43,622 nucleotides of DNA, from the NCBI GenBank assembly GCA_043797665.1, contig JAZDPL010000045.1, positions 1 through 43,622 on the forward strand, in the 5' to 3' direction. Positions 1,826 through 33,799 of the stretch are shown piece after piece. Both the position numbers and the translations under genes were made by a program. Position 1 is the first letter of the stretch, and each line of letters begins with the position of its first letter. This DNA comes from Candidatus Omnitrophota bacterium (GTDB lineage: Bacteria; Ratteibacteria; UBA8468; MWAK01). The notes under the pieces are model-generated. The model did no database searches, had not been told where the DNA came from, and was given only the letters and a program-made list of their open reading frames with translations.

Positions 1826-1971
1826 GCTTACCGCAACCCCTTTCAAGTTCATATTTTCTGTGCTATAATTTCCCTGTTCCGACCACCTAAATAATAATGA
1901 AAAAATTAAAGGAACAAACAATTACCTGGGACCATCCTGGCGGCAAACTCAAAACGGGGGGGGGACCCCAT

Positions 1972-3024
1972 ATGAAAAATCCCGAACCACAAATTGTTAT
2001 CTATAAAACCGAGGATGGACAGACAAAGCTTCGGGTAAAAATTGAAGATGAAACAGTCTGGCTCACTCAAGACCAGATGGCCGAGCTCTTCGACAAAGGC
2101 CGGACCACTATTATCGAGCATATCCATAATGCTTTTAAAGAAGGTGAACTTGATGAAAAAGCAGTATGTCGGGAATTCCGACGAACTGGATCTGACAGCA
2201 AAGAGTACGCCGTAAAACATTACAACCTCGATGTAATCATTTCGGTCGGGTACCGGGTGAAGTCGTTGCGGGGGACGCAATTTCGCATTTGGGCGACGCA
2301 AAGACTGCGGGAGTATATTATCAAAGGATTTACGCTGGACGATGAACGGCTCAAACAGGGCGGAGGCAGGGCGCGGTACTTTGAAGAGCTCCTGCAGCGA
2401 ATCCGGGATATCCGAAGCAGTGAGCGCAATTTTTATCAAAAAGTCACCGATATTTATGCCACCAGCATCGATTATCGAACGGACGACAAACTCACCAAAG
2501 AATTTTTCGCGACGGTGCAAAACAAGATACACTACGCTGTGCACGGCCACACCGCGGCCGAGATCGTAGATAAGAGCGCGGACAGCCGAAAGCCTTTGAT
2601 GGGGCTGACCAATCTCAAAGGCAATTACATTACCGCGCAGGACGTAACTATAGCCAAAAACTACCTGTCGGAATCTGAATTAAAACAACTGAATCTTATT
2701 GTTTCTTTGTATCTGGATTTTGCCGAACTGCAGGCCACCAACGGCAGACTGATGGAAATGAAGGATTGGATAGAAAAGCTCGATCAATTTTTAAAAATCA
2801 GCGAAAAAGAACTACTTACTCATGCGGGCAAAATTAGCGCCGAACAGGCCGAAGAAAAAGCACATCACGAATTTGATAAATACAGAAAAGATCAGGACAA
2901 GAAGCATGTCTCCGATTTTGACCGCGAGGTAAAAAAGTATTTAGCGGACGCAAAAAAAGCCGCAAAACTCTCTCCAAAAAAGACTAAAGAATTTTTCCAA
3001 AAGAACGGAGAAGTAAAACCATGA
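1972..3024 (+). CDS. Virulence RhuM-family protein (ORF is open from 1897; likely start 1972)
   Basis: ETVWLTQDQMAELF, YNLDVIISVGYRVKS, QFRIWAT, IRDIRSSERNFYQKVTDIYATS, IAKNYL. Confidence 0.88.
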   Translation: MKNPEPQIVIYKTEDGQTKLRVKIEDETVWLTQDQMAELFDKGRTTIIEHIHNAFKEGELDEKAVCREFRRTGSDSKEYAVKHYNLDVIISVGYRVKSLRGTQFRIWATQRLREYIIKGFTLDDERLKQGGGRARYFEELLQRIRDIRSSERNFYQKVTDIYATSIDYRTDDKLTKEFFATVQNKIHYAVHGHTAAEIVDKSADSRKPLMGLTNLKGNYITAQDVTIAKNYLSESELKQLNLIVSLYLDFAELQATNGRLMEMKDWIEKLDQFLKISEKELLTHAGKISAEQAEEKAHHEFDKYRKDQDKKHVSDFDREVKKYLADAKKAAKLSPKKTKEFFQKNGEVKP

Positions 3025-3266
3025 TAATAAACCTACAGGATGATCAGGAAATTTATGCTGTTGCCGTTAATGATTTGCAAAATGAAGCCATTAACAGAAT
3101 AGGCAGAAAATTAAGTGAAGACGAAATGTACACGGCTAAGAAATGTGTTGAATGTGGATTATCGTCGTGCATAGATATAACATTGAGAGCCGCAATTGAC
3201 GAAGCCGTGAGGTTAAACTATCAGAAAAGTCTGCCAAAAAGGAAAAATACGGGAAGTAAAACTTAA
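3021..3266 (+). CDS. Small hypothetical protein coupled to the RhuM-like gene
   Basis: 81-aa ORF overlapping the upstream stop (ATGA); no recognised motif. Confidence 0.6.
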   Translation: MIINLQDDQEIYAVAVNDLQNEAINRIGRKLSEDEMYTAKKCVECGLSSCIDITLRAAIDEAVRLNYQKSLPKRKNTGSKT

Positions 3267-3312
3267 TATTAAAACAGCGGAAATCATCCCCAGTGGGGTT
3301 AACTCACTGGCC

Positions 3313-3342
3313 ACCTCCGGGTTACGACCCGGAGGTTTTTTT
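3313..3342 (+). terminator. Intrinsic terminator-like hairpin
   Basis: ACCTCCGGG-ttacga-CCCGGAGGT followed by a T run. Confidence 0.7.
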
Positions 3343-3459
3343 ATGCATAGAAATAGTTGTTTGATTGACGGCTTTAATGTCTACAATAAAAACAGAAATA
3401 TCTCCAGTCAAAGAACAGAGGGTACATTGACAGAAGGATGGGATGGGAATATAATATAA
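3343..3459 (+). pseudogene. Possible 5' remnant of a NYN/LabA-DUF88 nuclease gene
   Basis: 38-codon ORF starting MHRNSCLIDGFNVYN; IDGFNxY is the typical first motif of NYN domains; the rest is absent. Confidence 0.4.
3427..3455 (+). promoter_or_regulatory. Consensus sigma70 promoter for the MNT-HEPN pair
   Basis: TTGACA (3427-3432), 17 bp spacer, TATAAT (3450-3455). Confidence 0.8.
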
Positions 3460-3505
3460 GGCGATGTTAGGATAACTTTACAGATGTTAAGTTGATATTA
3501 CAAAG

Positions 3506-4138
3506 ATGGCCATAGAAAAGAGACTGGATAATATAGTCAATTCAAGATCTAAAATTGCGATTATTCGGTTATTTGTCTCTAAGACCGCTGATTTCAGGGC
3601 TTCGGGTAGAGAAATAGCAAAGTTGGTGCATCTATCCGCACCGGCGGCGCATGCCGCCTTAAAGGAACTTTATAATCAAAGCGTTCTTAAGTTGGATATC
3701 ATTGGAAAACAACACATCTATAGCCTGGATAGCAAAAATATAATTGTCAAAAAAATATTAAGACCTATGTTTAAAGAAGAGGCTTCAATTAAAGACGAAG
3801 TCAGGGATTATTTAATTAAACAAATCAAGCATGCAGATATAAAGAATAAAATCGCATCTTGTATATTATATGGAAGTTTTCAAAAGGACCTAACCAGAGA
3901 CAGAAGCGATGTGGATATCGCGGTTATAGTCAAAGATAAAAAAAGCAAAAATGAAGTTGAAGATAAATTTCTAAATAATATATCAGTTAAATTTAATGAA
4001 TATTTCAGGATCCACTTGGATGCTTATATCAAGACGAGAGATGAATTTCGCCTTAGACTTAAGAAGAATCGTCCTCCGGTTTCAACCCTTATGAAATCTT
4101 ATTCTGTAATTTGGGGAAGAGAACCTTTGGATATTTAA
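3506..4138 (+). CDS. HTH-fused minimal nucleotidyltransferase (MNT antitoxin-like)
   Basis: N-terminal HTH (SGREIAKLVHLSAPAAHAALKEL) plus the Pol-beta motif LYGS...SDVDIAVI. Confidence 0.8.
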   Translation: MAIEKRLDNIVNSRSKIAIIRLFVSKTADFRASGREIAKLVHLSAPAAHAALKELYNQSVLKLDIIGKQHIYSLDSKNIIVKKILRPMFKEEASIKDEVRDYLIKQIKHADIKNKIASCILYGSFQKDLTRDRSDVDIAVIVKDKKSKNEVEDKFLNNISVKFNEYFRIHLDAYIKTRDEFRLRLKKNRPPVSTLMKSYSVIWGREPLDI

Positions 4139-4144
4139 TATTGT

Positions 4145-4591
4145 ATGACGCCACGGATAATTAAAACAAAGCAAGAAGACCGTTTTGTTGCCAAAGACTA
4201 CCTGAAGAAAGCAACTGACAACTACGAACAGATGCTTTTGGCTATCCGGGTAAATAATTTTAATGCCGCAGCTACCCTGGCTCTCCAGTGTGCCATTTCT
4301 TCAGCCGACGCCATTTGCGTTTTTGAAAAAGGAATGCGTTCTATTTCGCAAGATCACTTTGATGCTTGCGACTTAGTTGATTCTTTACCTGTGCAGGAGG
4401 CTAAAGATAAAAGTAAATTACTCAGAAAAATCATTGCCAAAAAGAACCTGATTCAATATGAAAGGCGCAATATCTATCAAAAGGAAGCATTGGAAATAGT
4501 AAAAACAGCCACAAGATTCTATCAATGGGTAAAGGGGTGTTTAGAAGAAGAGCAAGAACTGATTGACCGCAGAATATCAGGTGTGTTTTAA
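4145..4591 (+). CDS. HEPN-domain protein (toxin-like partner)
   Basis: Helical 148-aa protein with AISSADA, SQDH and KKNLIQYE; directly downstream of the MNT gene. Confidence 0.7.
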   Translation: MTPRIIKTKQEDRFVAKDYLKKATDNYEQMLLAIRVNNFNAAATLALQCAISSADAICVFEKGMRSISQDHFDACDLVDSLPVQEAKDKSKLLRKIIAKKNLIQYERRNIYQKEALEIVKTATRFYQWVKGCLEEEQELIDRRISGVF

Positions 4592-9353: not shown

Positions 9354-11828
9354 ATGAAGACCTGTTTGGATTCTGACTGGAAGTTTCATTTAGGCGACAT
9401 TCCGGTTGTTCTGCCGGTGATTAAAACCTACGGGTTTGTCAAAGCGGGTGCGGCGTTAGGCGCGTCTGACCCGAAGTTTGACGACCAGAACTGGCGCCGG
9501 TTAGATTTGCCTCACGACTGGGTCGTGGAAGGACAGATTACCCCGGAGGGCAACCGGGACCAGGGGTTTTTGCCCCGGGGTATTGCCTGGTACCGGAAAG
9601 TCTTTACCTTGAACCTACGGGAATTTATACCCCCCACCTCTCCTCCCCCGAAAGGCGGGGACCCCAATGTCAAATTGGGGGGGAGGATGAAGGAGGGGGT
9701 GAACTTGGTTCCTGAGGCTGAAGGCAAGAAAGTTTACCTTGAGTTTGAAGGCGTAAGCCGGAACGCTACGGTTTGGCTGAACGGTTTTCGCCTGGGCAAC
9801 CACCCCAGCGGATACACCGGTTTCTTCTATGACGTCAGTGACGTTGTCTCTCCGGAAGGAGGGGAAAACACTTTAGTGGTCAAGGTAGACGGTACGGAGA
9901 TGGAGGGCTGGTGGTACGAAGGCTGTGGTATCTACCGCCACGTCTGGCTCATTGTCAAAGAGAGGGTTCATCTTGAGCACTGGGGAGTTTTTGTAAGCAC
10001 GCCAAAGGTCTCGCGAAAAAAGGCGCAGGTTCTAATTCAAACCGAGGTGCGGAACGAGGAGGACACCGAGCAGGAGGTTGAACTAAAACAAACGATTAAA
10101 TATTTTGACGTAGGGGTCGGATCCCTGTTTACTACACACAGGGACAGGTTTATCCGACCCGCGGGCTTGATAAATCAAGCCCCTACTGGGGGCGCAAAAG
10201 TTGCCGAAGAGACTATGTCTCTAAAACTGAAAGCGGGTGAGTCTAAAAAGGTTAAACAGAAGATAGTTTTAGAAAACCCAAAACTCTGGTCTCCGGATAG
10301 CCCGCACCTTTACCGGGTCCAAACCCAATTAAGTCAGGGTGTCAGGGTATTGGACAGCGAAGACTCGCCTCTGGGTATCCGCCGGTTTAAGTTTACTCCG
10401 AACCGCGGGTTCCTGCTCAACGGTAAACCCGTGAAAATAAAAGGTACCTGCAACCACCAGGATTTTGCCGGAGTTGGTGTTGCCTTACCGGACTGCCTGC
10501 ATTACAAGAAGATAGAACATTTAAAAGAGATGGGTAGCAACGGTTACCGGTGCAGTCATAACCCACCGGCTCCAGCCTTGCTGGATGCCTGCGACCGGTT
10601 AGGTATGCTGGTGATGGATGAGAACCGCAAATTGGACAGTTCCGAGGAAGGCATCAGAGACTTACGGAGTCTGGTGCGCCGGGACCGCAACCACCCCTCT
10701 ATCATCCTGTGGAGTTTGGAGAACGAGGAGACCCTGGAAGGTACCGGGGTGGGAACTAAAATCCTGAGAAGCCTTTACAACGTTGTTAAAGAAGAAGACC
10801 CGACCCGTCCGATAACCGCAGCCGTCTCCCACGACTGGAACGAAGCCGGTTACGCCGACGTTCTGGACGTAGTCGGCTACAACTACTCACCCCAGAGGTA
10901 TCTTGAAGACCACCAGAAGTACCCGGAGCGCAAGATGGTCGGCAGCGAGACTACCTCTGCGGTGGAGACCCGGGGTGTCTACGAAACCAATGACGGCTAC
11001 TGCACCTGTTACGATAAGGAAACCCCTGCCTGGGGGAGTACCCATCAGGCAGCCTGGAAGGCGGTGGCGGAAAACAAGTTTATGGCCGGCGGTTTTGTCT
11101 GGACCGGTTTTGATTACCGGGGCGAGCCATCACCCTACGACTGGCCGGATATCTCCTCCCATTTCGGGATAATGGACACCTGCGGTTTTCCCAAAGACGC
11201 CTATTACTATTACCTTTCGGTCTGGACCGATAAACCGATGGTCCACATCCTCCCGCACTGGAACTGGCCGGGCAAAGAAGGGCAGGCTATTCCGGTCTGG
11301 TGCTACAGTAACTGCGACTACGTGGAACTCTTCCTTAACGATAAAAGTTTAGGCAAAAAGAAGTCTGTACCCGGAGGATACGTAGAATGGCCGGTATCTT
11401 ACCAGCCGGGTGAACTACGAGTTCTTGGCTATAAAGAGGGGAAGGAAGCCTGTTCTAAATCCGTCAAGACCGCCGGGACACCGTCCCGGATAAGCCTTGA
11501 ACCAAACCGGCAGATGCTGGACGCAGACGGATGTGACGTTGCCCTGATTAAATCTGCGGTCCTGGACAAAGACGGAATTCTGGTGCCGACCGCAGGCAAC
11601 AAGATTACCTTTAAGGTTGAAGGCAGCGGGAGATTGCTTGGTTTAGGCAACGGTGACCCGAAAGACCACCAAGGCGACAAAGAGGACAACCGCCGGGTCT
11701 TCAACGGATTGTGCCTGGCTCTGGTGCAGGCGGGAAAAGAGCCCGGGGCTCTGACCCTTACCGCAGAGGCTGAGGGACTTCAGTCCGCCAAGATTAAATT
11801 GGAGGTGATAACATCGTCGTCATCCTGA
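9354..11828 (+). CDS. Glycoside hydrolase family 2 (beta-galactosidase-like) with two in-frame palindromic insertions
   Basis: LPHDW, HPSGYTGF, GIYRHVWL, RCSHNPP, RDRNHPSIILWSLENE, GFVWTGFDYRGEP. Confidence 0.92.
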   Translation: MKTCLDSDWKFHLGDIPVVLPVIKTYGFVKAGAALGASDPKFDDQNWRRLDLPHDWVVEGQITPEGNRDQGFLPRGIAWYRKVFTLNLREFIPPTSPPPKGGDPNVKLGGRMKEGVNLVPEAEGKKVYLEFEGVSRNATVWLNGFRLGNHPSGYTGFFYDVSDVVSPEGGENTLVVKVDGTEMEGWWYEGCGIYRHVWLIVKERVHLEHWGVFVSTPKVSRKKAQVLIQTEVRNEEDTEQEVELKQTIKYFDVGVGSLFTTHRDRFIRPAGLINQAPTGGAKVAEETMSLKLKAGESKKVKQKIVLENPKLWSPDSPHLYRVQTQLSQGVRVLDSEDSPLGIRRFKFTPNRGFLLNGKPVKIKGTCNHQDFAGVGVALPDCLHYKKIEHLKEMGSNGYRCSHNPPAPALLDACDRLGMLVMDENRKLDSSEEGIRDLRSLVRRDRNHPSIILWSLENEETLEGTGVGTKILRSLYNVVKEEDPTRPITAAVSHDWNEAGYADVLDVVGYNYSPQRYLEDHQKYPERKMVGSETTSAVETRGVYETNDGYCTCYDKETPAWGSTHQAAWKAVAENKFMAGGFVWTGFDYRGEPSPYDWPDISSHFGIMDTCGFPKDAYYYYLSVWTDKPMVHILPHWNWPGKEGQAIPVWCYSNCDYVELFLNDKSLGKKKSVPGGYVEWPVSYQPGELRVLGYKEGKEACSKSVKTAGTPSRISLEPNRQMLDADGCDVALIKSAVLDKDGILVPTAGNKITFKVEGSGRLLGLGNGDPKDHQGDKEDNRRVFNGLCLALVQAGKEPGALTLTAEAEGLQSAKIKLEVITSSSS
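9629..9700. repeat. C-rich/G-rich palindromic element (family C) inserted in frame in the GH2 gene
   Basis: ACCCCCCACCTCTCCTCCCCC...GGGGGGAGGATGAAGGAGGGGGT; encodes PPTSPPPKGGDPNVKLGGRMKEGV. Confidence 0.7.
10110..10186 (+). repeat. Family A REP inserted in frame in the GH2 gene, carrying a nested 27-bp insert
   Basis: GTAGGGGTCGGAT[CCCTGTTTACTACACACAGGGACAGGT]TTATCCGACCCGCGGGCTTGATAAATCAAGCCCCTAC. Confidence 0.9.
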
Positions 11829-23265: not shown

Positions 23266-26200
23266 CTACTTGAGAATGGTCGCCCCCATGATACCGAAAA
23301 CCAGGTCGTTGGCAATGGCTTCTAATTCAACCGATGCCAATTTCACATCCGGCCTCAATTCAACCGGAACCAGGTGTGCTTCGGTATCCACAGGAAACCA
23401 TTTCATCCGGTCCGGCACCTGGGCCGAACCGGCCGGACCATACCGGCCGCCAATATTCTCAAATCCATAGGAGGGAACCGGTTTCCGTGGGTGATACTTG
23501 TGGTTTGGAAAACACCAGGAATTCTTTCCGTCCGGTTCGAAAAAACGGAAATAACGGACCCAGCAATCGCTCATATCAAACGGATTAACCAGGTCTCTCC
23601 GGTCGCATTTGCCATCGGCATACTGGAGCGTTACCCGGAGATTGACCACATGGCTTTGCATTTGCCAGGTTATTCCGCTAAGCATCAGGTAGAGCGCCTT
23701 ACCCTGAACATTAACCGGAAACTTGACCGCTGACGGAAAGCCGCCTGTCAGGGTCACCACGGCGATATTGGGTCCCTCTTTGGACGACTTAAAAGGAATG
23801 CCGTCGGTCGTCCAGGCAATTTGGTTGGAACCGACCTTTTTTCGCCAGGCAGCATCCGAAGGGCGTTCACTCTTGAGAAGAGACCAGTATTCGGTCAGGT
23901 GTATTTTCCAATAGCGAAAACCGATTGTGCTGGCCGGCGGTTTTGGTTCCTGAGCATCGGCAACGGCACCGACGCGGTCAATCACCTCCGTAAACGCGGC
24001 ATTGTACACCTGGTTCAGGTCAAGCAAAGTCCAGTATTGCAGGTCATTGGCTGGGTGATCGGGTGCTTTCCAAACTTTGGGTTGGACCGGCGTTTTTGGT
24101 TCAATCTTAATTCGCAGGGGAAGCCAGGCCGGACAGTTTCGGGAACCTGATGACAAAAATAATAATGCCGGACCCGGTTCTCCCTTGATGACCGCCTTCA
24201 AAATACCGTCCTCTACGTAAGCATTGTCCAGAATGTTCTGCGGATTGAGAAAATCGGTTGCCGAAGACTGAGCCAGGTCCAGGCGCAGGAAATCGCCTTG
24301 CTTAACGACCATCTCCGCGGGTGGCGCAGGACGGGCCGGAACAAATGAAACATCAAAAATTCCGCTTGTTCCTGTCGGCAAAGAAGCCGTCAGCCAGGTA
24401 AGTCCAATTCCCGCTTCCACGTTATATTCAAGTGGTTTGCCGTCAACAGCAACTGAACGAATTTCCGTTGCCCGGAGCGGAAGTCGTATCTTTACATTTA
24501 TTTCTTCCGGCGCCTTCCATTTAATTGTGACGCTATTTTCTTCCTTCTTCCAGTCATAGGAAAAATAGGTGGATTGAATAGAAGCCTGTTTCCAGCCGTC
24601 GGGAAACTGGGGGGTCACTTCAACGAGGTGTTGGGGTTTGTTAATTTTGATTCCAAACAGGCCCTCAAAAACAGCCCGGCCCCACATGCTGTTGGCGTCG
24701 GCGTATTCATCATTATGTTGAGCCGGACCCGAAGGCAGTCCGCCCGGAGTCGGGCCGCGGTAAATGCCCTGCAGGACTCCGCGGAGAAAAGCATAGGCGT
24801 CATCCGCCCTACCGCCCAGGTAGTTAGTCGAAGCATAATTGATATTTTCATGGTAAAAAGGTTCCCAAACACTGTGAACAGGAAGCCAATTTACGTTCCA
24901 GACCAGCCTTCCCCCACCCACAGTATTTATGTGTTCCAGGTTATTATCAACCCAATGGAGCATCTGATAAATCTGTATCTCATCGGCGGCTCCGAACTCA
25001 GCCGAGTGATAAATTGCCGGAAGCGACGGGAACGGATGCAAAAGCCGATGCCCGCGTGTATCAAGATATTCGGCAAACACCCCTTGCCGCGGTATCCAAA
25101 GTTTACGCTGCATGGCGGCGCGGATAAGGCGCGCTTGTGCCCGAAAAGGCACGGCGTTTTCACCCAGGGAATCAGCTAAATCCGCCAGAAATCTGTGTGC
25201 CTGGAGCATATAGGCCGAGGCAATCGTACACTGCCCCCGTATGTACCAGTGGGAATCGCTGGGGTCCACGTCTAAACTGCTTTCGTAGAGATACTCGTTT
25301 TCGGGCTGGAGCCGGCGGTTTTCCCATTCCACGATGCCCTGAATGACGGGAAAGATTTCCCGCATCAGTTCCAGGTCGTTGGTATACTCCACATAATGCC
25401 GGACCTGGTCAATAAAAACCTCGTTCATATTGTAAAGAAATCCAAAACCCTCACCGAAGATCTCCAGGTCGAACAATGAACCGAGCGCACCCTTGTCGGG
25501 GCCTTCCTTTCGGACCCCAAATCGAACATGGCTCTGAATGGATTTGCGAATCCGGTCCGTCCAGCCGTAACAGGTCGGACCATACCAAATGCGCCAACCC
25601 GGATGCGGTATCCGCCAGGACCATCCGCCGTGGACAATCGCCACGTCGCCCCAGGTACCCTCGGTAGTGAATGCCACCGTAGTCATCGCGGAATCAAGGT
25701 ATGGGTCGGGAGTGTGGGTGGCTATCCGGTTGGCAATGGACCGGTTTCGTTCTAAAGCGGCTTTATAGGCGGCGTCTTGATCGGTCAGAACCTGTTCAAT
25801 GTTGCCCCCGATGCCAAAGACGATGCTGCCTGCGTCTTCACCCGGACCAAGCGGGACCCTTTGAACTACCACTCCGTTTGATTTTTCCGGCACGGTCCAT
25901 TCGGTTGCATCAAGCAATCCGGCGGGTGATTCCAATACCCGGTTAGGGTCGCCGATTCCCATCACGCCTTGTTTCGGACCGCCGCCTCGAATTGTAATCT
26001 GCCAGTCCGGCAGGGCATCCGCCATTGGAAAGAGCATCTTTTGTTGAACAAAACTGTCGGACTGGTCAAAAGCCCGAGCGAGGCGGAATGTACCGTTTTC
26101 AATTAAAATGCGGTCCTTGGCACATTGTTCCGGCGCAAAGAAAAACTCTTTGGCTTTGAAATCATAATTCGTGACAAAGGCCGATGCGCCGCCATAACTC

Positions 26201-26718
26201 CAAACCAAAAAGGCCGGTTTGGATAATCCCCGCACCGCATACTTGACTATCATGCCAATCGAATCGGCCAGTACAGTCGCTGTCAGGAAAATTGTCACAC
26301 TCGGAAAGTCAGGGTCAGCCAAGGTGTATTCCATCCGGCCGTCAATGTAGCCAACCTCCAGATCCGACCATTGATGGAACCATTTGCTTTTTCCTCCTTC
26401 CAGTGCCAGTCCGATAAAAAGATGTCCCGCGAGACCGCCGGCGCTATACAGGTCCAGAAGAAAGCGGGGAGTGTTGTAAGCAAGTACGATGGGACGAAAC
26501 GGACAACGTTCAATTTTTTTGAGTTGGTCTTTGTTCCAGAGCATGGACTTTTCAGCAGGAGGATAGAGCGGTCTGCGGTGGAAGCGGGGATTACCTTCGG
26601 CTGTTCCAATCTGTGATTCCGGAGTAGGGCGTATCGTTCCCTTGTCACCGGTTATCCTGATGCGCCAACCGCCTTTGACGGGTTCATAACAATTTACAAG
26701 ACGTGATATATTTGCCAT
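23266..26718 (-). CDS. DUF4450-like protein, probable (alpha/alpha)6 glycoside hydrolase-like enzyme
   Basis: 1150 aa; GWRIWYGP, YNMNEVFIDQ, VEWENRRL, FEGLFGI resemble six-hairpin glycosidase/DUF4450 proteins. Confidence 0.6.
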   Translation of the reverse strand: MANISRLVNCYEPVKGGWRIRITGDKGTIRPTPESQIGTAEGNPRFHRRPLYPPAEKSMLWNKDQLKKIERCPFRPIVLAYNTPRFLLDLYSAGGLAGHLFIGLALEGGKSKWFHQWSDLEVGYIDGRMEYTLADPDFPSVTIFLTATVLADSIGMIVKYAVRGLSKPAFLVWSYGGASAFVTNYDFKAKEFFFAPEQCAKDRILIENGTFRLARAFDQSDSFVQQKMLFPMADALPDWQITIRGGGPKQGVMGIGDPNRVLESPAGLLDATEWTVPEKSNGVVVQRVPLGPGEDAGSIVFGIGGNIEQVLTDQDAAYKAALERNRSIANRIATHTPDPYLDSAMTTVAFTTEGTWGDVAIVHGGWSWRIPHPGWRIWYGPTCYGWTDRIRKSIQSHVRFGVRKEGPDKGALGSLFDLEIFGEGFGFLYNMNEVFIDQVRHYVEYTNDLELMREIFPVIQGIVEWENRRLQPENEYLYESSLDVDPSDSHWYIRGQCTIASAYMLQAHRFLADLADSLGENAVPFRAQARLIRAAMQRKLWIPRQGVFAEYLDTRGHRLLHPFPSLPAIYHSAEFGAADEIQIYQMLHWVDNNLEHINTVGGGRLVWNVNWLPVHSVWEPFYHENINYASTNYLGGRADDAYAFLRGVLQGIYRGPTPGGLPSGPAQHNDEYADANSMWGRAVFEGLFGIKINKPQHLVEVTPQFPDGWKQASIQSTYFSYDWKKEENSVTIKWKAPEEINVKIRLPLRATEIRSVAVDGKPLEYNVEAGIGLTWLTASLPTGTSGIFDVSFVPARPAPPAEMVVKQGDFLRLDLAQSSATDFLNPQNILDNAYVEDGILKAVIKGEPGPALLFLSSGSRNCPAWLPLRIKIEPKTPVQPKVWKAPDHPANDLQYWTLLDLNQVYNAAFTEVIDRVGAVADAQEPKPPASTIGFRYWKIHLTEYWSLLKSERPSDAAWRKKVGSNQIAWTTDGIPFKSSKEGPNIAVVTLTGGFPSAVKFPVNVQGKALYLMLSGITWQMQSHVVNLRVTLQYADGKCDRRDLVNPFDMSDCWVRYFRFFEPDGKNSWCFPNHKYHPRKPVPSYGFENIGGRYGPAGSAQVPDRMKWFPVDTEAHLVPVELRPDVKLASVELEAIANDLVFGIMGATILK

Positions 26719-26725
26719 TTCATTG

Positions 26726-29700
26726 TTATTTTACCTTGAATATCCTTTCGGTCTTTATTCCCGTCGCCACATCCGTAACTATAATCCTCCATTCGCCGGC
26801 GGGGTCGTTCAAGGCAAGGGAGAAAGAACCCTCTCCTTTTCCGCTCGGCAGAGAAAGGTTCCGGCCATACTCTTTGTAGGGCCGTCCGCCCGGAGCGGTT
26901 ACCTCAACATGGGCCACCTGCGGGATAAGGACGGCCGGTAACGTTGCCGCGCGGATAGAGTATTTCACTTCCATCCCGGGCGTATATTCCTTCTCAATGT
27001 TTTCTAAGGTGAGCCCGTTCACCTTGCACGGCAGCAGCGCATACAGCTTCGCCACGGCCGGCAAGATGACAGTATCAATCTTATTGACAAACCCCAGATA
27101 GTGGTTGTCGCGGACAGAATAGACGTGATATGTTCCGGGAAGTTGGACGGTGACTGCTTGCGGTGTGTGGTCTTCGTTTGCCTTCTTCAGGTACTCCCGC
27201 CCCTGAAGGATTCCCAGGTAGATAGCCGGGCCGTTCTTGAACTCAACGATTTCACAGCCGGTAAGTTCTTTGTTATTTTTCGGTGTGATGGTAACCTTTG
27301 GTTTTACTCCGGACTTACCCAGGAGCGTACTTATCTCCCCGCGATACCGACTGCCTGTTTCTCCATTTTTGACCTCACGGTACTTCCAGATAGGGTTGGC
27401 GATTTTGATAACATTTACACCGGCAAGCATATTTGTCTTGACATATTTGCAATGTTCGTCCATGACCCCGGCTTCCCCGTCGGCCAGGATAAGACCGCCT
27501 TTGGCGGCGAACGCTTTCATGGCGGCGGCTTCTTCCTGCCTGATGGCGCGGGAGTAGGGCAGGATAAGGACGCGGTAATCGGCCAGTTTTCCCTGCTGCA
27601 TCTGCTCTTTGGAAATGAAATCATACTGAAGACCAAGGTCCTCAAGGAGATTGCAGAAAGCCCGGGGAGATTCCACCCGTTCCCGGCCGCCCAGAATCGT
27701 TTCGGCGTGGAAACTGGCCGGGGAGTAATGGATGGCGATGCCGTTATTTTCGCGCCGGCACTCCAGAAGCAACTTACCGGCACCGCATTTTATTTCTCCG
27801 ATTGTCTCTACAATATTTTTTGCCCAGGGCGTAAACCTCAAATCGCAGGAGTAAAACCCGTACCATTGCGTATCCATCGCGTCCCAGTAATGAACTGAAT
27901 TCATCCCGTGAAAAAGGTCATACCAGGGTATAAACCGGTCGGTCTGGTCGCTCCGCCAGGTATCTTCGTAGTAGCCCTTAGGGTAGTCTTCAAATGGATT
28001 GGTGAAGGTTTGAAGAACCGTATTGGGTAATGCAAAAGAACGTAAGAATTCCATTTGAGGGGGATTGTACTGAAAGTAAACACCCCAATAATTTCCCTGA
28101 GGAATAACCTTGCCGAAATCATATCCGTAAAAACTATCCTCGCCGTTATTCTTGTACATCGTGGTTGAGGTGGGACTCGTAGTACCCACCCTGGCACCTG
28201 GGTCTTCTTTGCGAATGATGTCCCGGCTTTCTCTAATCAGGTTTGCGAACATATCCTCCATCGCCGTGCGAAGGTCAGTCCAGGGAGCGAAATTCCCGTG
28301 CGCCTTCGCTTCCGCCAGCGTCATACACTTTACCTGGTCCCAGAAATCAAAATTCGTGCCCCACGCTTCGTTCAATTTTCCGAGGTCTCCGTAAATGGAT
28401 TTCAAATAATTCCTGGTGTATTCCAGGCAGGTCGGCGAAAAACAGAAATCCTGCTGAGCCAGGCCAATTCCTACTTCATCTCCCAAACTATAAGCAATAA
28501 TGGGGTAATCCCGTGCCACTGATGCCTGGTCCTGCAGTACATGAAAGAAGTAGTCCCGGAATTGCTTGCTGGTAAGGCACCGGGGACGGACGGTGTCAGC
28601 CACATCATACCCCCCGCCCGAACAAGCCAACTCTCCGGAGATGACTAGAGCCGGTACAAGATTAGGTTTGACCTCGTTAGAGAGAATGCCGGCGACCTGT
28701 TCATGAGATATGAACTGGGGTTTCTGTGCATATGCGACGTCAAATCCCCGGTTATATAAATCCGTGAGCATATATCTGCTCAGAAAATCATTGTTATTGA
28801 CCAACATATTTGCCCAGAACCAGAACTGGAAATCATCCAATTTCTGGGGTATTTTATATATAACATCCGCGGTCTTTTCAGAGATAATGCCATTGCCTTC
28901 AATCAGGTCGGCTTTCACTGTGTGATAGATGGCAACCGGATTCCGGAAGGGAAGTTGGAATGTAACTTCTTTCTTGCCGGAGGCGGTAATCACCTTTTCT
29001 TCCATGATGCGGCCAAAACCGTCGCTGAATTGAATCTTTACCTTGATTGAATCAGATAATTCTTTGTTAAAACTTACTTTTCCGGTTACTGCCTCTCCCG
29101 GATTGTAGGAAAACTTATCGGTTGTGACTGCGGTGATTTCATGGTCAGATACGGTCTGGAAATAGGTACTGCCCCAGACCAGGGTCTTTCCGTCTTTCTT
29201 CAGCCAGAAGTCTGCAAAGTGAGGTCCGGATTTGAGTCGGCCGATTTGCTGGCCGAGGTCTGCGGTTTCTGCGGGAAGGCTGACCTTCTTTTCATACTTT
29301 GCTTCAACGTTTCCATCGGGATCGCGTACCACGATTTCTGCAATCGCTTCTTGAGTGATGCCACTGTTTGTTATCCTTACCTTAAGATTATTATTGAGGT
29401 CCCAGTTAATGCCGGTAATCTGGAAATCGCCTTCTTTCCGGGCTGCCCAGAGGACCAGTTTTGCCAGCAGGGATTGATAGTAGTCATAGTAAAGAGGTTT
29501 TGCGCGGTAGTCATGCGTAACGTCCGGAGTAAACGGAGAACTTTTGCCTCTAAACCACGTTTTCTCTGATTCAAAAGTACCGAATTTCTCATTCTGGTAA
29601 TCAACGATGACAACTCTTCCTTTGCCGCAGGCATAACACTTAAGCCATTGCTGACCTTTCACATCAAGGTCAAGAACGGTGAGACCTGGAAATGGTATCC

Positions 29701-31696
29701 CAATGGAAATAAATAATGGCTGTTCAAGCGGTTTTTCGGTAAACTGGTCAAGTTTGGTCTCTTTGGAAGGTCTGATGAAAACTAAACCTGTACCCTGTTT
29801 TACTTTTTCCAGCATGTTGTCCTTCAACGACTGCGGCAGCGCCTGCCAGTTGCAAGTGCCGATGAGGATGACTTCCGGGTTCCTATCAAGCAACCCCTTT
29901 AATTCAATCAGGGATGCCGTCTGTCCTCGTCCGCGGGGAGCGTAGTAGAGGGTATCCATAACCGAATAGCCGGGTGTTTCGTCTTCACTGGTGTACCGGC
30001 TCCAGGCGGTGTAGTCAATGCTTAACCTCTGGGCAAGTTCCACCACTTCCCTGTGTCTGGGTATGGCCAGGATTCTAATTGGCTGGATTGCATAAGGAAT
30101 TGCCCAGGTGATGTGGGGAGTTACGACCTCTCCGGTAAGCCGGGTGTATGGCGTTTCATCAATATTGGCGGTAAGCTGTGCGGTTGAAAGATTTATCTCC
30201 CGGAGGCTGAAATCATCCCACCACGCCTGGCCGGAAGAACGCCAGATTTCTCCCTTTATCTGGGCTTCTTCCGTATCATCCTTTGAGGTAAATTCTATTG
30301 CGTATTCCTTCCAGTCCTCTGATGTTATGGAAATCATGTGGAGGGCGGTGCGGACTCCGCCTGCCTTGTATTCATTGAGAACCAGTAACGCTGTGTCGGT
30401 TCCTTTGCTTTTCGCCCAACAGGTGAGTTTATATAATGATTTGGGTTTCATCGTAATCCGCTCTGCCCAGCCGCCGATTTCATCCTTCCCGGCAGGGATA
30501 TTAACCTGGATTGAGTGAGAACCGCTGTGGGCGTCATCGGAAACCAGGCAGGCGGCGGTATCTCCGAACCGCTGGTACTCAGAAACATCAAGCGGCAGGG
30601 GTGCCTCCGGGCTCCTCTTCCAGGGAGGCGGGATGCCGTTGTTGTCAATCTTCTCAAATCCGCCGTTGGCAATCAGTTCGGAATCGCCGGAGGTTTTTAC
30701 ATCCGCTTTCGGCGTTCCTTTAAGGTCAGGAATACGAAAATAGTCAATCTCAATGGTCCGTTGCTCTTCCGGGATGGGCCATTTGCAGTAAATCGGGTGG
30801 AAACGCATCCGGAGGACATTGCCTTTCCAGAAGGGGTTTTTGGACATGTCAATCTCATAGACGTGGAATTCGCCATCTGAGGAAGGTTGGAATGTCACTA
30901 CCATGTTGTCGTTAAAATTCGGATTCTGGTCAGTTACAAACAGAATTTGAGCACCGGAAACAAGACCCTTGCCTATCCGCATGCGGAAGACAACAATGGG
31001 CTGGTTTGCCGCATCCACTTCCATGGTGGGGGTAAACATCCAGGGCGTGCCGTTCTTGGCTACCAACTTCCAAACACCGTCAACGATTCCCTTGCTTTCA
31101 GAGCCATCCTGCCACATTTCCCAACCGTCCAGGGATTCTGCGGTGTTAAACTCCCACTGGGAAATTGTCTTTGGTAATTCGCTCTGGCTGACTATATGCA
31201 TATAAGCAATTTCTATGGCGCGCTGGTCTTCCGGGATGGGCCAGTTGACATAGAACGGATGGAAACGCAATTTTAAAACCGTACCTTTCCATAGGGGATT
31301 TTTTCCCATATCAACCTTGTAGGTGTGAAATTCACCGTCAGGTATCGGCTGGAAGGAAACGACGGTAGGGACATCCATCGCCGCCGTGTCGGTGGCAAAG
31401 ATGAAGTTGCCGCCGGGGGTAATGTCTTTGGCAATCTTCATCTGGAAAACAATGTATTGACAGGCGGCGGCATCTACCTTCAGGTCCGGGGTGTAAATCT
31501 GGGGAGCGTTACCGGTTGCAGCCAGTTTCCACACCCCATTCGAGACGCCGATGCTTTCAAGGTTAACCGGGACCCAGCCCTTGACGGCTTCCGCATTATT
31601 GAAGTCCCAACTGTTTTCCCCGGCCAACGCCTTGCAATTAAAGAATACGGATAACCATATTCCGAACACCAGCACTGACAAAACCAAACTCTTCAT
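26726..31696 (-). CDS. Large secreted multi-domain carbohydrate-active protein (duplicated N-terminal beta-sandwiches, CBM-like domain, GH42-like core)
   Basis: Signal peptide; IANGGFE CBM-like start; YSLGDE, YGDLGKLNEAWGTNF, DLGLQYDFIS/YRVLILP trimerisation-like domain; LALNDPAGEW C-terminus. Confidence 0.7.
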   Translation of the reverse strand: MKSLVLSVLVFGIWLSVFFNCKALAGENSWDFNNAEAVKGWVPVNLESIGVSNGVWKLAATGNAPQIYTPDLKVDAAACQYIVFQMKIAKDITPGGNFIFATDTAAMDVPTVVSFQPIPDGEFHTYKVDMGKNPLWKGTVLKLRFHPFYVNWPIPEDQRAIEIAYMHIVSQSELPKTISQWEFNTAESLDGWEMWQDGSESKGIVDGVWKLVAKNGTPWMFTPTMEVDAANQPIVVFRMRIGKGLVSGAQILFVTDQNPNFNDNMVVTFQPSSDGEFHVYEIDMSKNPFWKGNVLRMRFHPIYCKWPIPEEQRTIEIDYFRIPDLKGTPKADVKTSGDSELIANGGFEKIDNNGIPPPWKRSPEAPLPLDVSEYQRFGDTAACLVSDDAHSGSHSIQVNIPAGKDEIGGWAERITMKPKSLYKLTCWAKSKGTDTALLVLNEYKAGGVRTALHMISITSEDWKEYAIEFTSKDDTEEAQIKGEIWRSSGQAWWDDFSLREINLSTAQLTANIDETPYTRLTGEVVTPHITWAIPYAIQPIRILAIPRHREVVELAQRLSIDYTAWSRYTSEDETPGYSVMDTLYYAPRGRGQTASLIELKGLLDRNPEVILIGTCNWQALPQSLKDNMLEKVKQGTGLVFIRPSKETKLDQFTEKPLEQPLFISIGIPFPGLTVLDLDVKGQQWLKCYACGKGRVVIVDYQNEKFGTFESEKTWFRGKSSPFTPDVTHDYRAKPLYYDYYQSLLAKLVLWAARKEGDFQITGINWDLNNNLKVRITNSGITQEAIAEIVVRDPDGNVEAKYEKKVSLPAETADLGQQIGRLKSGPHFADFWLKKDGKTLVWGSTYFQTVSDHEITAVTTDKFSYNPGEAVTGKVSFNKELSDSIKVKIQFSDGFGRIMEEKVITASGKKEVTFQLPFRNPVAIYHTVKADLIEGNGIISEKTADVIYKIPQKLDDFQFWFWANMLVNNNDFLSRYMLTDLYNRGFDVAYAQKPQFISHEQVAGILSNEVKPNLVPALVISGELACSGGGYDVADTVRPRCLTSKQFRDYFFHVLQDQASVARDYPIIAYSLGDEVGIGLAQQDFCFSPTCLEYTRNYLKSIYGDLGKLNEAWGTNFDFWDQVKCMTLAEAKAHGNFAPWTDLRTAMEDMFANLIRESRDIIRKEDPGARVGTTSPTSTTMYKNNGEDSFYGYDFGKVIPQGNYWGVYFQYNPPQMEFLRSFALPNTVLQTFTNPFEDYPKGYYEDTWRSDQTDRFIPWYDLFHGMNSVHYWDAMDTQWYGFYSCDLRFTPWAKNIVETIGEIKCGAGKLLLECRRENNGIAIHYSPASFHAETILGGRERVESPRAFCNLLEDLGLQYDFISKEQMQQGKLADYRVLILPYSRAIRQEEAAAMKAFAAKGGLILADGEAGVMDEHCKYVKTNMLAGVNVIKIANPIWKYREVKNGETGSRYRGEISTLLGKSGVKPKVTITPKNNKELTGCEIVEFKNGPAIYLGILQGREYLKKANEDHTPQAVTVQLPGTYHVYSVRDNHYLGFVNKIDTVILPAVAKLYALLPCKVNGLTLENIEKEYTPGMEVKYSIRAATLPAVLIPQVAHVEVTAPGGRPYKEYGRNLSLPSGKGEGSFSLALNDPAGEWRIIVTDVATGIKTERIFKVK

Positions 31697-31839: not shown

Positions 31840-33723
31840 TCACCACGGCCACCAGAACGGGTCGCTTTGCGACGTTGGAATGGATGATGCGGCGCGCCAT
31901 TCAACATGGCCGTCACAGAAAAGACAGTTTGCGCCGCCGCTGTGTCTATTATCTATTATTCCGTAACCTCCGCCATCAACATGATAGATGCGATGACTAG
32001 CTGCTCCATAAAGGTCCGCTGGCTGATCAGGGTCTATCGAATCGGCCACCAGAACTGTCTGGGTGGGGTGGCTGAACCTGGAAGTCTTTATTGTCCCACC
32101 GTAGACCAAAGCTTCAAATTCATAACTCATACCGTAAAAATAACCCCCCGGAGATTTATTTTCTACCGTGGGACACTTCCATACAGTACCTCCGGTAGTG
32201 GTATAACCTTTCTGCATATACGGGGCCAGCAAATTTATCCAGATGTAATCCGGAGCAGGCGGACTGGTTATGGGAAAAAGGTCCTCATTATCCTGGGCAT
32301 ACATATAGAAAGCGAGTCCGATCTGTTTCAGATTACTGATACATTTCGTCTGCCTGGCTTTCTCCCTTGCCTGATTTAAAGCCGGCAACAACATCGCCGC
32401 CAGAAGTGCGATGATGGCAATGACGACCAGAAGTTCTATGAGGGTAAAGCTTCGCAAAGCCTTGACTGGCATTTGTCTCCCCAATCTGACATTGGGGTCC
32501 CCGCGCTTTATCCCATAGACCACACCGGACGTTGAGTTTTCCCCAATCCGGCTTTCCCCCTGAAGTTCTTCAGTCTGCATTCGGTTACCCCCGATATATG
32601 AGTGACGGAACATAGTACAGTTCCCTTTCTGTTTAAAACCACACGATTCACGAATAATTAATTTTGGTTTAATGGAAATTCTTGTCATTGAATTATCCTT
32701 TCCTCTGATTTTATTCAAGAGAATTTTGATTGCTTGTTTACCCATTCCCTCTCCAAATAGCTCCACCGTGGTCAAAGGTGGCTGAAAGTATTCTGTAAGT
32801 TTAAAGTTTCCGGTACCTACCACCGCCATCTCCTGAGGTACCTGGCACCCTTTTTCTTTTAGGTGATTTATTACTTCAAACGCCATCAAATCACTGGCGC
32901 AGTATATGGCGGTCGGAAAGGCGGATTTCCACCCCTTTTTTTTAAGATTATACAATGATTGGCAAACCATTTTCCAATCTGAGTAAGGCCAATTAATCTG
33001 TAAGCGAGGATTAAATTCCAGTCCTGTTTCCTGAAGTGCTTTTTGGTAACCAGCCAATCTTTCTTTCTCAATAGGATATTTTTCTCCGTAACCTCCGAGA
33101 TAAAGAATATTCTGATGTCCCAACCCAATAAGGTGTTTAGTGGCGAGATAAGAAACCTGGAAGAAATCAGGGCAGATGAAACTGAAATTTTGTTCGGGCC
33201 AGAAACAATTAGCCAAAACAAAGGGGATTTTGTAGTTCTGGAGGTTAATGAGTTCGTGCTCGTTGACTTGCGAGGCGGTGATAAAAAATCCAACAAGATG
33301 TTTCTTTTTTGCCAGAGAAAGAAGATAATGGTTTTTTTGTTTTCTTCGGTTCTCGTCAAAGAATATCAGTAAAATATGGTAATTGGTATTCTTTAGGGAT
33401 AAATTTATTCCCTGAATGATACCGCTGAAGAAGGAGAACGCAAAGTTTTCTGAAGAGTGCAGTACTATGCCGATGTTGTAAGAATTGCCAAATTGTAAAG
33501 GGTTGGCAATAAAAGTTCCGCTTCCTTGAATGCGTGTAAGCAACCCTTCTTGTACTAAGGCAAATATCGATTCTCGAGCTGTTGAAGGTGAAATATCATA
33601 ATATTTAGCCAGTTCATTCTGCGAATAAAACCGTGCCCCCTGAAGGTATTTACCAGAAAGCAATTCTTTTTCAAGGAGGTTTCGTAGCTGCTCGCACTTT
33701 GTTTTTGTGATTAATGCCGGCAT
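31840..33723 (-). CDS. GntR-HTH/LacI-type regulator fused in frame to a prepilin-type N-terminal cleavage / H-X9-DG (DUF1559-like) protein
   Basis: RIQGSGTF winged HTH; PPLTTV...LIIRESCG LacI C-terminus; then [32 protein letters not shown]...C.SNLKQIG and [16 protein letters not shown]. Confidence 0.85.
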
Positions 33724-33737
33724 AAGAAGGAGGTTAC

Positions 33738-33799
33738 AAAAGTTATTTGCTTACCCAATAACTTTTAATAGATTATCACAACCCCACCGACTCTGTCAA
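33738..33799 (-). promoter_or_regulatory. Promoter with a downstream inverted repeat (candidate operator) for the fusion regulator
   Basis: Minus strand TTGACA-16bp-GATAAT (33799-33772); AAAAGTTATT-N9-AATAACTTTT at 33738-33766. Confidence 0.5.

Follow-up and report, generated by a model that had tools for sequence, protein, structure and literature searches.

A regulator gene joined in frame to a DUF1559/H-X9-DG prepilin gene in a Candidatus Omnitrophota bacterium, probably a young and tolerated merger

The window analyzed here, a stretch of 43,622 nucleotides that makes up contig C8 of a 2.7 Mb Candidatus Omnitrophota genome, contains a gene (31840-33723, minus strand) in which an AraR-type regulator continues in frame into a type IV prepilin-like protein, and this raises the question of whether a whole transcription factor serves as the leader of a prepilin or whether two adjoining genes have run together. 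A preliminary description of the locus had proposed a membrane-tethered regulator that prepilin peptidase could release, and had added the caveat of a recent stop-codon loss with the pilin's own start retained. We find the caveat to be the better reading. With the open frame, the domains, the kept internal ribosome site and the split relatives all observed directly, we lean towards the gene being a young, tolerated in-frame merger of an AraR-type regulator gene and a DUF1559/H-X9-DG prepilin gene, the pair usually found at the front of glycan-use operons in this lineage, the fusion probably being undone by prepilin peptidase rather than used in regulated signalling.

In the assembly sequence the ORF encodes 627 aa with no internal stop codon, and profile searches bore out the union of a GntR plus LacI-type regulator with an N_methyl/H-X9-DG pilin that had been read from its translation (Table 1). 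The winged helix-turn-helix matched PF00392 at 42.5 bits against a cut-off of 27, and the effector domain is of the LacI/GalR type (PF13377, 109 bits; PF00532, 76 bits), with Peripla_BP_1 spanning residues 83-357 and Peripla_BP_3 residues 196-361. Foldseek matched the regulator half to CelR, RbsR, PurR, CcpA and the AraR effector domain 3tb6. Past the linker, N_methyl (residues 424-446), DUF1559/SBP_bac_10 (residues 451-485) and the C-terminal H-X9-DG motif (TIGR04294, residues 593-609, 31.7 bits against a curated cut-off of 19) each exceeded their cut-offs, and the prepilin features of Phe at +1, Glu at +5 and a hydrophobic helix are all present. Phe+1 is residue 426 at position 32448, with Ser before it, as had been described.

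Table 1. Coordinates in the window of the fused gene, its parts and its surroundings
Feature	Position	Strand	Basis
Fused ORF, start codon without Shine-Dalgarno signal	31840..33723	-	sequence
GntR winged helix-turn-helix, residues 11-72	33508..33693	-	PF00392 above cut-off
LacI/GalR-type sugar-binding domain, residues 83-361, C-terminal end LIIRESC	32641..33477	-	Pfam, model, Foldseek
Linker of 64 aa: end of the regulator, then what was the pilin's 5' region and leader	32449..32640	-	sequence, model
Internal ribosome site GGGGGT plus ATG (MQTEE)	32578..32592	-	duplex energy -9.9
30-nt palindromic repeat, read in frame as RGDPNVRLG	32476-32505	-	13 genome copies
Class III signal, S/FTLIE plus hydrophobic helix	32377..32448	-	Pfam, model, sequence match
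DUF1559/H-X9-DG pilin-like head, motif at 31897-31947	31843..32376	-	profiles, structure comparison
Sigma-70-like promoter TTGACA-16-GATAAT with TG	33772..33799	-	consensus scan, 11/12 matches
Perfect 10-bp inverted repeat, 9-nt spacer, between -10 box and start codon	33738..33766		sequence
Downstream 1656-aa protein, CBM4/9-like plus GH42-like domains, the pilin's cassette partner	26726..31696	-	Pfam, synteny
Downstream 1150-aa DUF4450/MGH1-like glycoside hydrolase	23266..26718	-	Pfam

The AlphaFold model of the fusion (mean pLDDT 68) has a folded regulator and a long helix at residues 428-478, and the mature pilin part modelled alone reached a pLDDT of 77. Its first 60 residues match type IV pilins in sequence, and the best fold match of the head is a modest one to the type IV pilin 6xxd (Z 6.0, rmsd 3.5, 118 aligned); the top nine rows of the VIA comparison are all pilins, at Z 6.0 or lower, and a Foldseek search with the pilin model returned zero matches at E < 0.001. 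The regulator half is more AT-rich than its partner, as noted before, with a GC content of 0.39 compared to 0.49 in the pilin half, 0.50 in the downstream gene and 0.48 in the genome.

The linker from RESC to Phe+1 measures 64 aa, close to the approximately 65 first estimated, and AlphaFold predicts it to be disordered, with pLDDT under 50 across the 58 residues from 366 to 423. Three in-frame ATGs lie inside it, at 32613, 32580 and 32472. The second stands behind the ribosome site that the preliminary description had picked out (GGGGGT-N6-ATG) and would yield a separate prepilin whose leader is 44 aa long; in this genome the best-site leader is at least 33 aa in 13 of 58 prepilins. Scored by a simple duplex energy (kcal/mol), this site reaches -9.9, while the regulator's own start scores +0.9. 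The same division runs through the host genome, whose regulator genes have no Shine-Dalgarno signal (median -0.7, n = 29) and whose prepilins behind them have strong sites (median -10.5, quartiles -11.2 to -8.9, n = 58). From the sequence, the internal start at 32580 looks intact and much stronger than that of the regulator. Since the site is of normal strength and the regulator start has no ribosome site, we expect much more stand-alone pilin than full-length protein. The MPVK start at 32472 was rejected as the main internal start, having a weaker site (-6.6) and lying within a repeat hairpin.

That hairpin belongs to a 30-nt palindromic repeat with 13 copies genome-wide, 12 of them within long ORFs, and the copies encode in-frame peptides. 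A second copy in the window (9651-9680) lies inside an 824-aa glycosidase-like ORF (9354-11828), and further repeat-derived inserts, e.g., VGVGFIRPAGLINQAPT, are present both in prepilin leaders and in two ORFs of the window (9354 and 17400). These in-ORF repeats and inserts are reminiscent of coding-region palindromic elements. An origin of the linker as a remnant of another gene was likewise rejected, its matches being chance ones in other frames or to unrelated genes.

Upstream of the fused gene, a promoter scan by consensus only gave 6 sites in the region compared to 3.8 expected, and the inverted repeat between the -10 box of the promoter in Table 1 and the start codon is a candidate operator for autoregulation. 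The host genome holds about 36 regulators with a LacI-type sugar domain and 67 prepilin motifs, the pilin half of the fusion being one of about 60 DUF1559/H-X9-DG paralogs. Its pilus genes include one A24 prepilin peptidase (C79:32818), four secretins and several assembly ATPases, with 12 PF00437 matches over the cut-off.

Searches for the fused gene's relatives found the two halves apart. The two best database matches, P0002 and P0003, are 61% identical over the regulator but only 381 and 366 aa long, and they end 12 and 3 residues past RESCG, respectively, although these ends are those of the gene calls, and the contigs may simply stop there. A stop after RESCG in close homologs was one of the observations that the preliminary description had named as counting against its proposal. 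Metagenome scans for DNA around close regulator homologs found none. A search of 65 genomes of the phylum gave a single clear ortholog for the pilin head (G028:C59, 54% identical), a separate, stand-alone prepilin located ahead of an ortholog (47%) of the GH42-like gene. The regulator preceding it is a different one (26%) and stops in another frame. This shared gene order under an unrelated regulator indicates that the pilin belongs to the CAZyme cassette and that the regulator in front is exchangeable. Among the matches listed, which comprise 150 of 258 regulator matches in the phylum, only two lie in open frames of more than 500 aa, namely the gene studied here and one in the same genus (G001:C19). 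The nearest fused relative of our gene is only 32% identical to it.

To place the fusion within its family of gene pairs, we inspected what follows 152 regulator ends (36 in the host genome and 116 in relatives, taking best-scoring rows first across the matched loci and 86 fetched regions), seven of which had less than 300 nt downstream. A prepilin begins within 400 nt behind 82 of the 152, with frame offsets of 28/23/31, so that regulator followed by prepilin is the standard gene order in the phylum. Only three of the 82 pairs are fused, compared to about 13 expected from random frames (p 0.0004). In the host genome alone, where 19 of the 36 regulators have a prepilin within 400 nt, two pairs are fused (the gene studied here and one on contig C65) against 4.75 expected, a shortfall that does not reach significance (p 0.11). 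Traced upstream, the pilin frame stays open as far as the regulator end in 26 of 54 out-of-frame pairs, compared to 3 of 28 among the in-frame ones (Fisher p 0.0007); these p-values overstate the case because kin are not independent. As the frame is already open, one small indel would fuse those 26 pairs. Fusions are not in excess among the tandem pairs of the phylum, and a single small indel would suffice to fuse half of those that are split, as the G001:C19 fusion with its split twin (described below) illustrates. Programmed stop read-through as a general mechanism was rejected, since the pairs show no in-frame excess, although 14 of the loci came from a full-length query, which favors in-frame pairs. 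Taken by itself, the gene in the window probably arose by accident from a gene pair that is very common.

The available text of PMC4471445 calls Gly at -1 "absolutely critical" and describes bacterial leaders as invariably Gly-ended and 6-26 aa long, while the PilFind motif, as given in the available part of PMC3244431, accepts G, A or S; the Ser of the fused gene therefore lies within the motif and outside the Gly rule. The site is also far from a short leader, in which the motif lies within about 35 aa of the N-terminus: 425 aa precede it in the fused form, and 44 aa from the internal start. In 58 host prepilins of the DUF1559/H-X9-DG type, the -1 residue is Gly in 25, Ala in 18 and Ser in 15, and the frequency of the latter two suggests a relaxed peptidase; either the host enzyme may be relaxed in specificity or many host prepilins may go uncut. 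The tandem prepilins of relatives carry Gly at -1 in 58 of 63 cases. Judged from sequence, cleavage after Ser in the fused gene is uncertain.

The disordered linker with its genome-wide repeat, the low identity of the nearest fused relative and the presence of prepilin peptidase, secretins and assembly ATPases also speak for the merger that we favor. Under it, most pilin would still be translated from the ATG at 32580, and rare full-length molecules would be anchored in the membrane through the prepilin helix, their regulator part remaining in the cytoplasm. This topology, with the pilin head outside, is the one first proposed, and it follows from the rules for class III signal peptides: as stated in the available text of PMC4471445, the leader is cytoplasmic, the hydrophobic helix inserts via SRP/Sec and the peptidase cuts on the cytoplasmic side. 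Prepilin peptidase would then probably cut between Ser and Phe as a housekeeping step, freeing a normal pilin and a regulator carrying a floppy tail of 64 residues. Because such a cut separates the halves, the cell would get about the same two proteins as the split relatives do, and the gene would in effect encode a precursor of two proteins. The regulator would sense a cytoplasmic sugar and act on the CAZyme genes downstream as well as on the promoter of its own gene, and in other lineages the process would have gone one step further, with the pilin start deleted and the regulator left as the only leader. A fusion that changes little could recur, seldom spread and later lose the pilin start.

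An alternative is that no cut is made, or only a slow one, the Ser at -1 blocking or slowing the peptidase so that the anchored regulator binds DNA from the membrane; in the strong form, put forward in the preliminary description as a second option, the protein would be a one-component sensor with an outside head. The departure of Ser from the Gly-ended leaders of PMC4471445 (available text) speaks for a tether, and the long flexible linker would allow a tethered dimer to reach DNA. The many Ser and Ala residues at -1 in the host's own prepilins nevertheless suggest a relaxed peptidase, and a sensor would have to pass its signal through 58 low-confidence residues that are ill-suited to the task, to a regulator that already has its own cytoplasmic ligand domain. 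The pilin head, moreover, is conserved with the CAZyme cassette and not with the regulator. We consider a lasting tether unlikely, its sensor form in particular.

Membrane-tethered transcription factors freed by proteolysis and sensors of the ToxR/CadC type combine a cytoplasmic DNA-binding part, one membrane helix and an outside domain, and the fused gene shares this plan. It differs in that its protease would be a housekeeping one, its ligand domain is its own and cytoplasmic, its linker is disordered and its fusion is not conserved in relatives. In a ToxR/CadC-type sensor the outside domain and the DNA-binding domain are coupled and are conserved together; here the G028 head lies under a different regulator.

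The other functional reading is regulated release, in which the regulator is held as a giant prepilin leader and freed alongside pilin maturation, so that filaments are coupled to the CAZyme genes. Recurrence speaks for it, and the check for independent recurrence that accompanied the original proposal came out in its favor. Database searches returned 76 fused regulator-prepilin proteins, of which 73 were clustered (two of other regulator types and one partial were dropped, and two more were missed by the motif pattern), giving 58 clusters at 70% regulator identity, mostly singletons, with some fused pairs sharing 45-61% identity. The architecture has arisen independently with varied DNA-binding modules (GntR-LacI, LacI and HutC-type), and some clusters have no internal start. 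Gly or Ala stands at -1 in 25 of 26 clusters with no Met in the linker compared to 14 of 32 others, although Gly or Ala may simply be inherited and the comparison is confounded by lineage (the stand-alone relative P0127 has Asn at -1). A Met in the linker proved a weak marker of an internal start on its own (32 of 58 seen compared to 26 expected by chance), and internal starts were instead judged on DNA.

In seven of the fusion clusters the linker lacks M, V and L altogether, and four loci lack a start on DNA. In these Planctomycetota loci (L133, L135, L136 and L137, two of which are members of the query), a LacI regulator is fused to a prepilin by a linker of 5-13 codons in which ATG, GTG and TTG are all absent, leaving the regulator as the pilin's only apparent leader. 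Two of the four are sister sequences on the tree, and fusions can thus persist. We regard the four as the best candidates for an obligate regulator-as-leader. In their near relatives L134 and L143, another long gene separates regulator and pilin.

Even in this clade, however, fusion is the minority state, with three of 20 tandem pairs fused, one of them the search center, in a survey of 401 genomes of the class that scored only the four best candidates per genome. The fused or split state changed at least two times on the tree, and four by parsimony. The gene in the window retains its internal start and has no fused ortholog in the database searches and the 65 phylum genomes. Prepilin processing requires no other part of the machinery, according to the available text of PMC4471445, so release would have no obvious control point. 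The proposal of release by peptidase thus keeps its topology, a genome equipped with prepilin peptidase and filament machinery, and recurrence of the architecture, and it is set back by the split homologs, the rarity of fusions and the intact internal start; for this gene we hold regulated release to be improbable. A wider conjecture would have whole transcription factors serving as prepilin leaders across several glycan-degrader phyla, released by prepilin peptidase, with our gene, its internal start still in place, at an early stage and the Planctomycetota forms, start-less and keeping Gly or Ala at -1, at the end stage, and in its boldest form with the release rate setting repression of the CAZyme operon and so linking filament biogenesis to sugar gene control. 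We offer this as a rather doubtful extension.

Finally, a small indel or substitution at the junction may have removed a stop in this assembly alone. The fused protein was found on one contig only, and the contigs of one public DNA run (0.07 share) do not span the junction. The G001:C19 fusion (L049, G001:C19:6000-11140) gives reason for caution as well, since across data sets a single base decides whether it is fused or split: its 90% cluster holds fused forms of 577 and 581 aa and a split pair of 381 + 198 aa with halves identical to the fused form, the fused DNA read in the shifted frame gives the tail and stop of the split twin, and what separates the two forms is a shift of one base where the junction has a G-run. 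This difference may be a strain polymorphism, slippage or a sequencing error. With the fused form present in several sources (NCBI, ENA and JGI), it may be real polymorphism.

The host genome moreover contains a second, independent fusion, of LacI type (G000:C65:29412-31388, minus strand; P0007), with a close homolog from another source (P0005) that is likewise fused although its linker and pilin head differ, which hints, from the sequences, at maintenance of that fusion. The operon neighbors of the gene in the window are long, intact ORFs without other signs of frameshift. An error confined to this assembly is in our judgment a poor explanation. On contig C65 there is also a frameshifted partial copy of the 3' end of the C65 regulator (C65:10198-10510), terminated by a stop.

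Both halves of the gene belong to known families. The AraR subfamily of GntR regulators, typified by Bacillus subtilis AraR, has the same layout of GntR winged helix-turn-helix and LacI/GalR domain; the fold match to 3tb6 is at 24% identity, and similar to AraR the fused gene stands first in a glycosidase operon and has a candidate operator next to the promoter. Unlike AraR, it continues in frame into a prepilin and scores below every equivalog cut-off shown. With the DUF1559/H-X9-DG prepilin-like proteins (PF07596, TIGR04294) it shares the Class III signal, the DUF1559 start and the H-X9-DG end, differing in a leader extended by a whole regulator and in the Ser at -1. This family is expanded in PVC-type glycan degraders, and the available text of PMC13274419 reports 67 PulG-like homologs of this kind in a Verrucomicrobiota isolate, one of them in an alginate cluster.

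Compared to the type IV prepilins processed by PilD, the fused gene has Phe+1, Glu+5, the long N-terminal helix and a pilin-like head in common, and departs from their Gly-ended leaders of 6-26 aa (PMC4471445, available text) with one of 425 aa, or 44 from the internal start. The Sulfolobus bindosome, as described in the same part of that source, also places a type IV filament signal in a sugar-uptake context, its sugar-binding proteins having class III signal peptides; these proteins are archaeal ABC binding proteins, whereas here a regulator is fused and sugar binding by DUF1559 is putative.

A literature search of main texts, with most subscription papers outside it, returned neither a description of a regulator-prepilin fusion nor one of PilD processing of a folded N-terminal domain, and the fusion pattern is recurring and apparently undescribed. 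The start-less fusions imply either that the peptidase is able to cut off a folded domain of 350 residues, against the textbook leader of 6-26 residues, or that a pilin helix can anchor LacI/GntR regulators without stopping them from working. The tandem arrangement also gives a handle on the unexplained DUF1559/H-X9-DG family, whose position behind sugar regulators heading CAZyme operons (82 of the 152 examined) argues for a function in capturing glycans or exporting enzymes.

Elsewhere in the window, positions 1897-4591 form an AT-rich island (GC 0.33-0.43) with a 375-aa ORF that, judged from its translation, we take to resemble RhuM-type proteins, and with what is presumably a nucleotidyltransferase-HEPN-like gene pair, also judged from translation.
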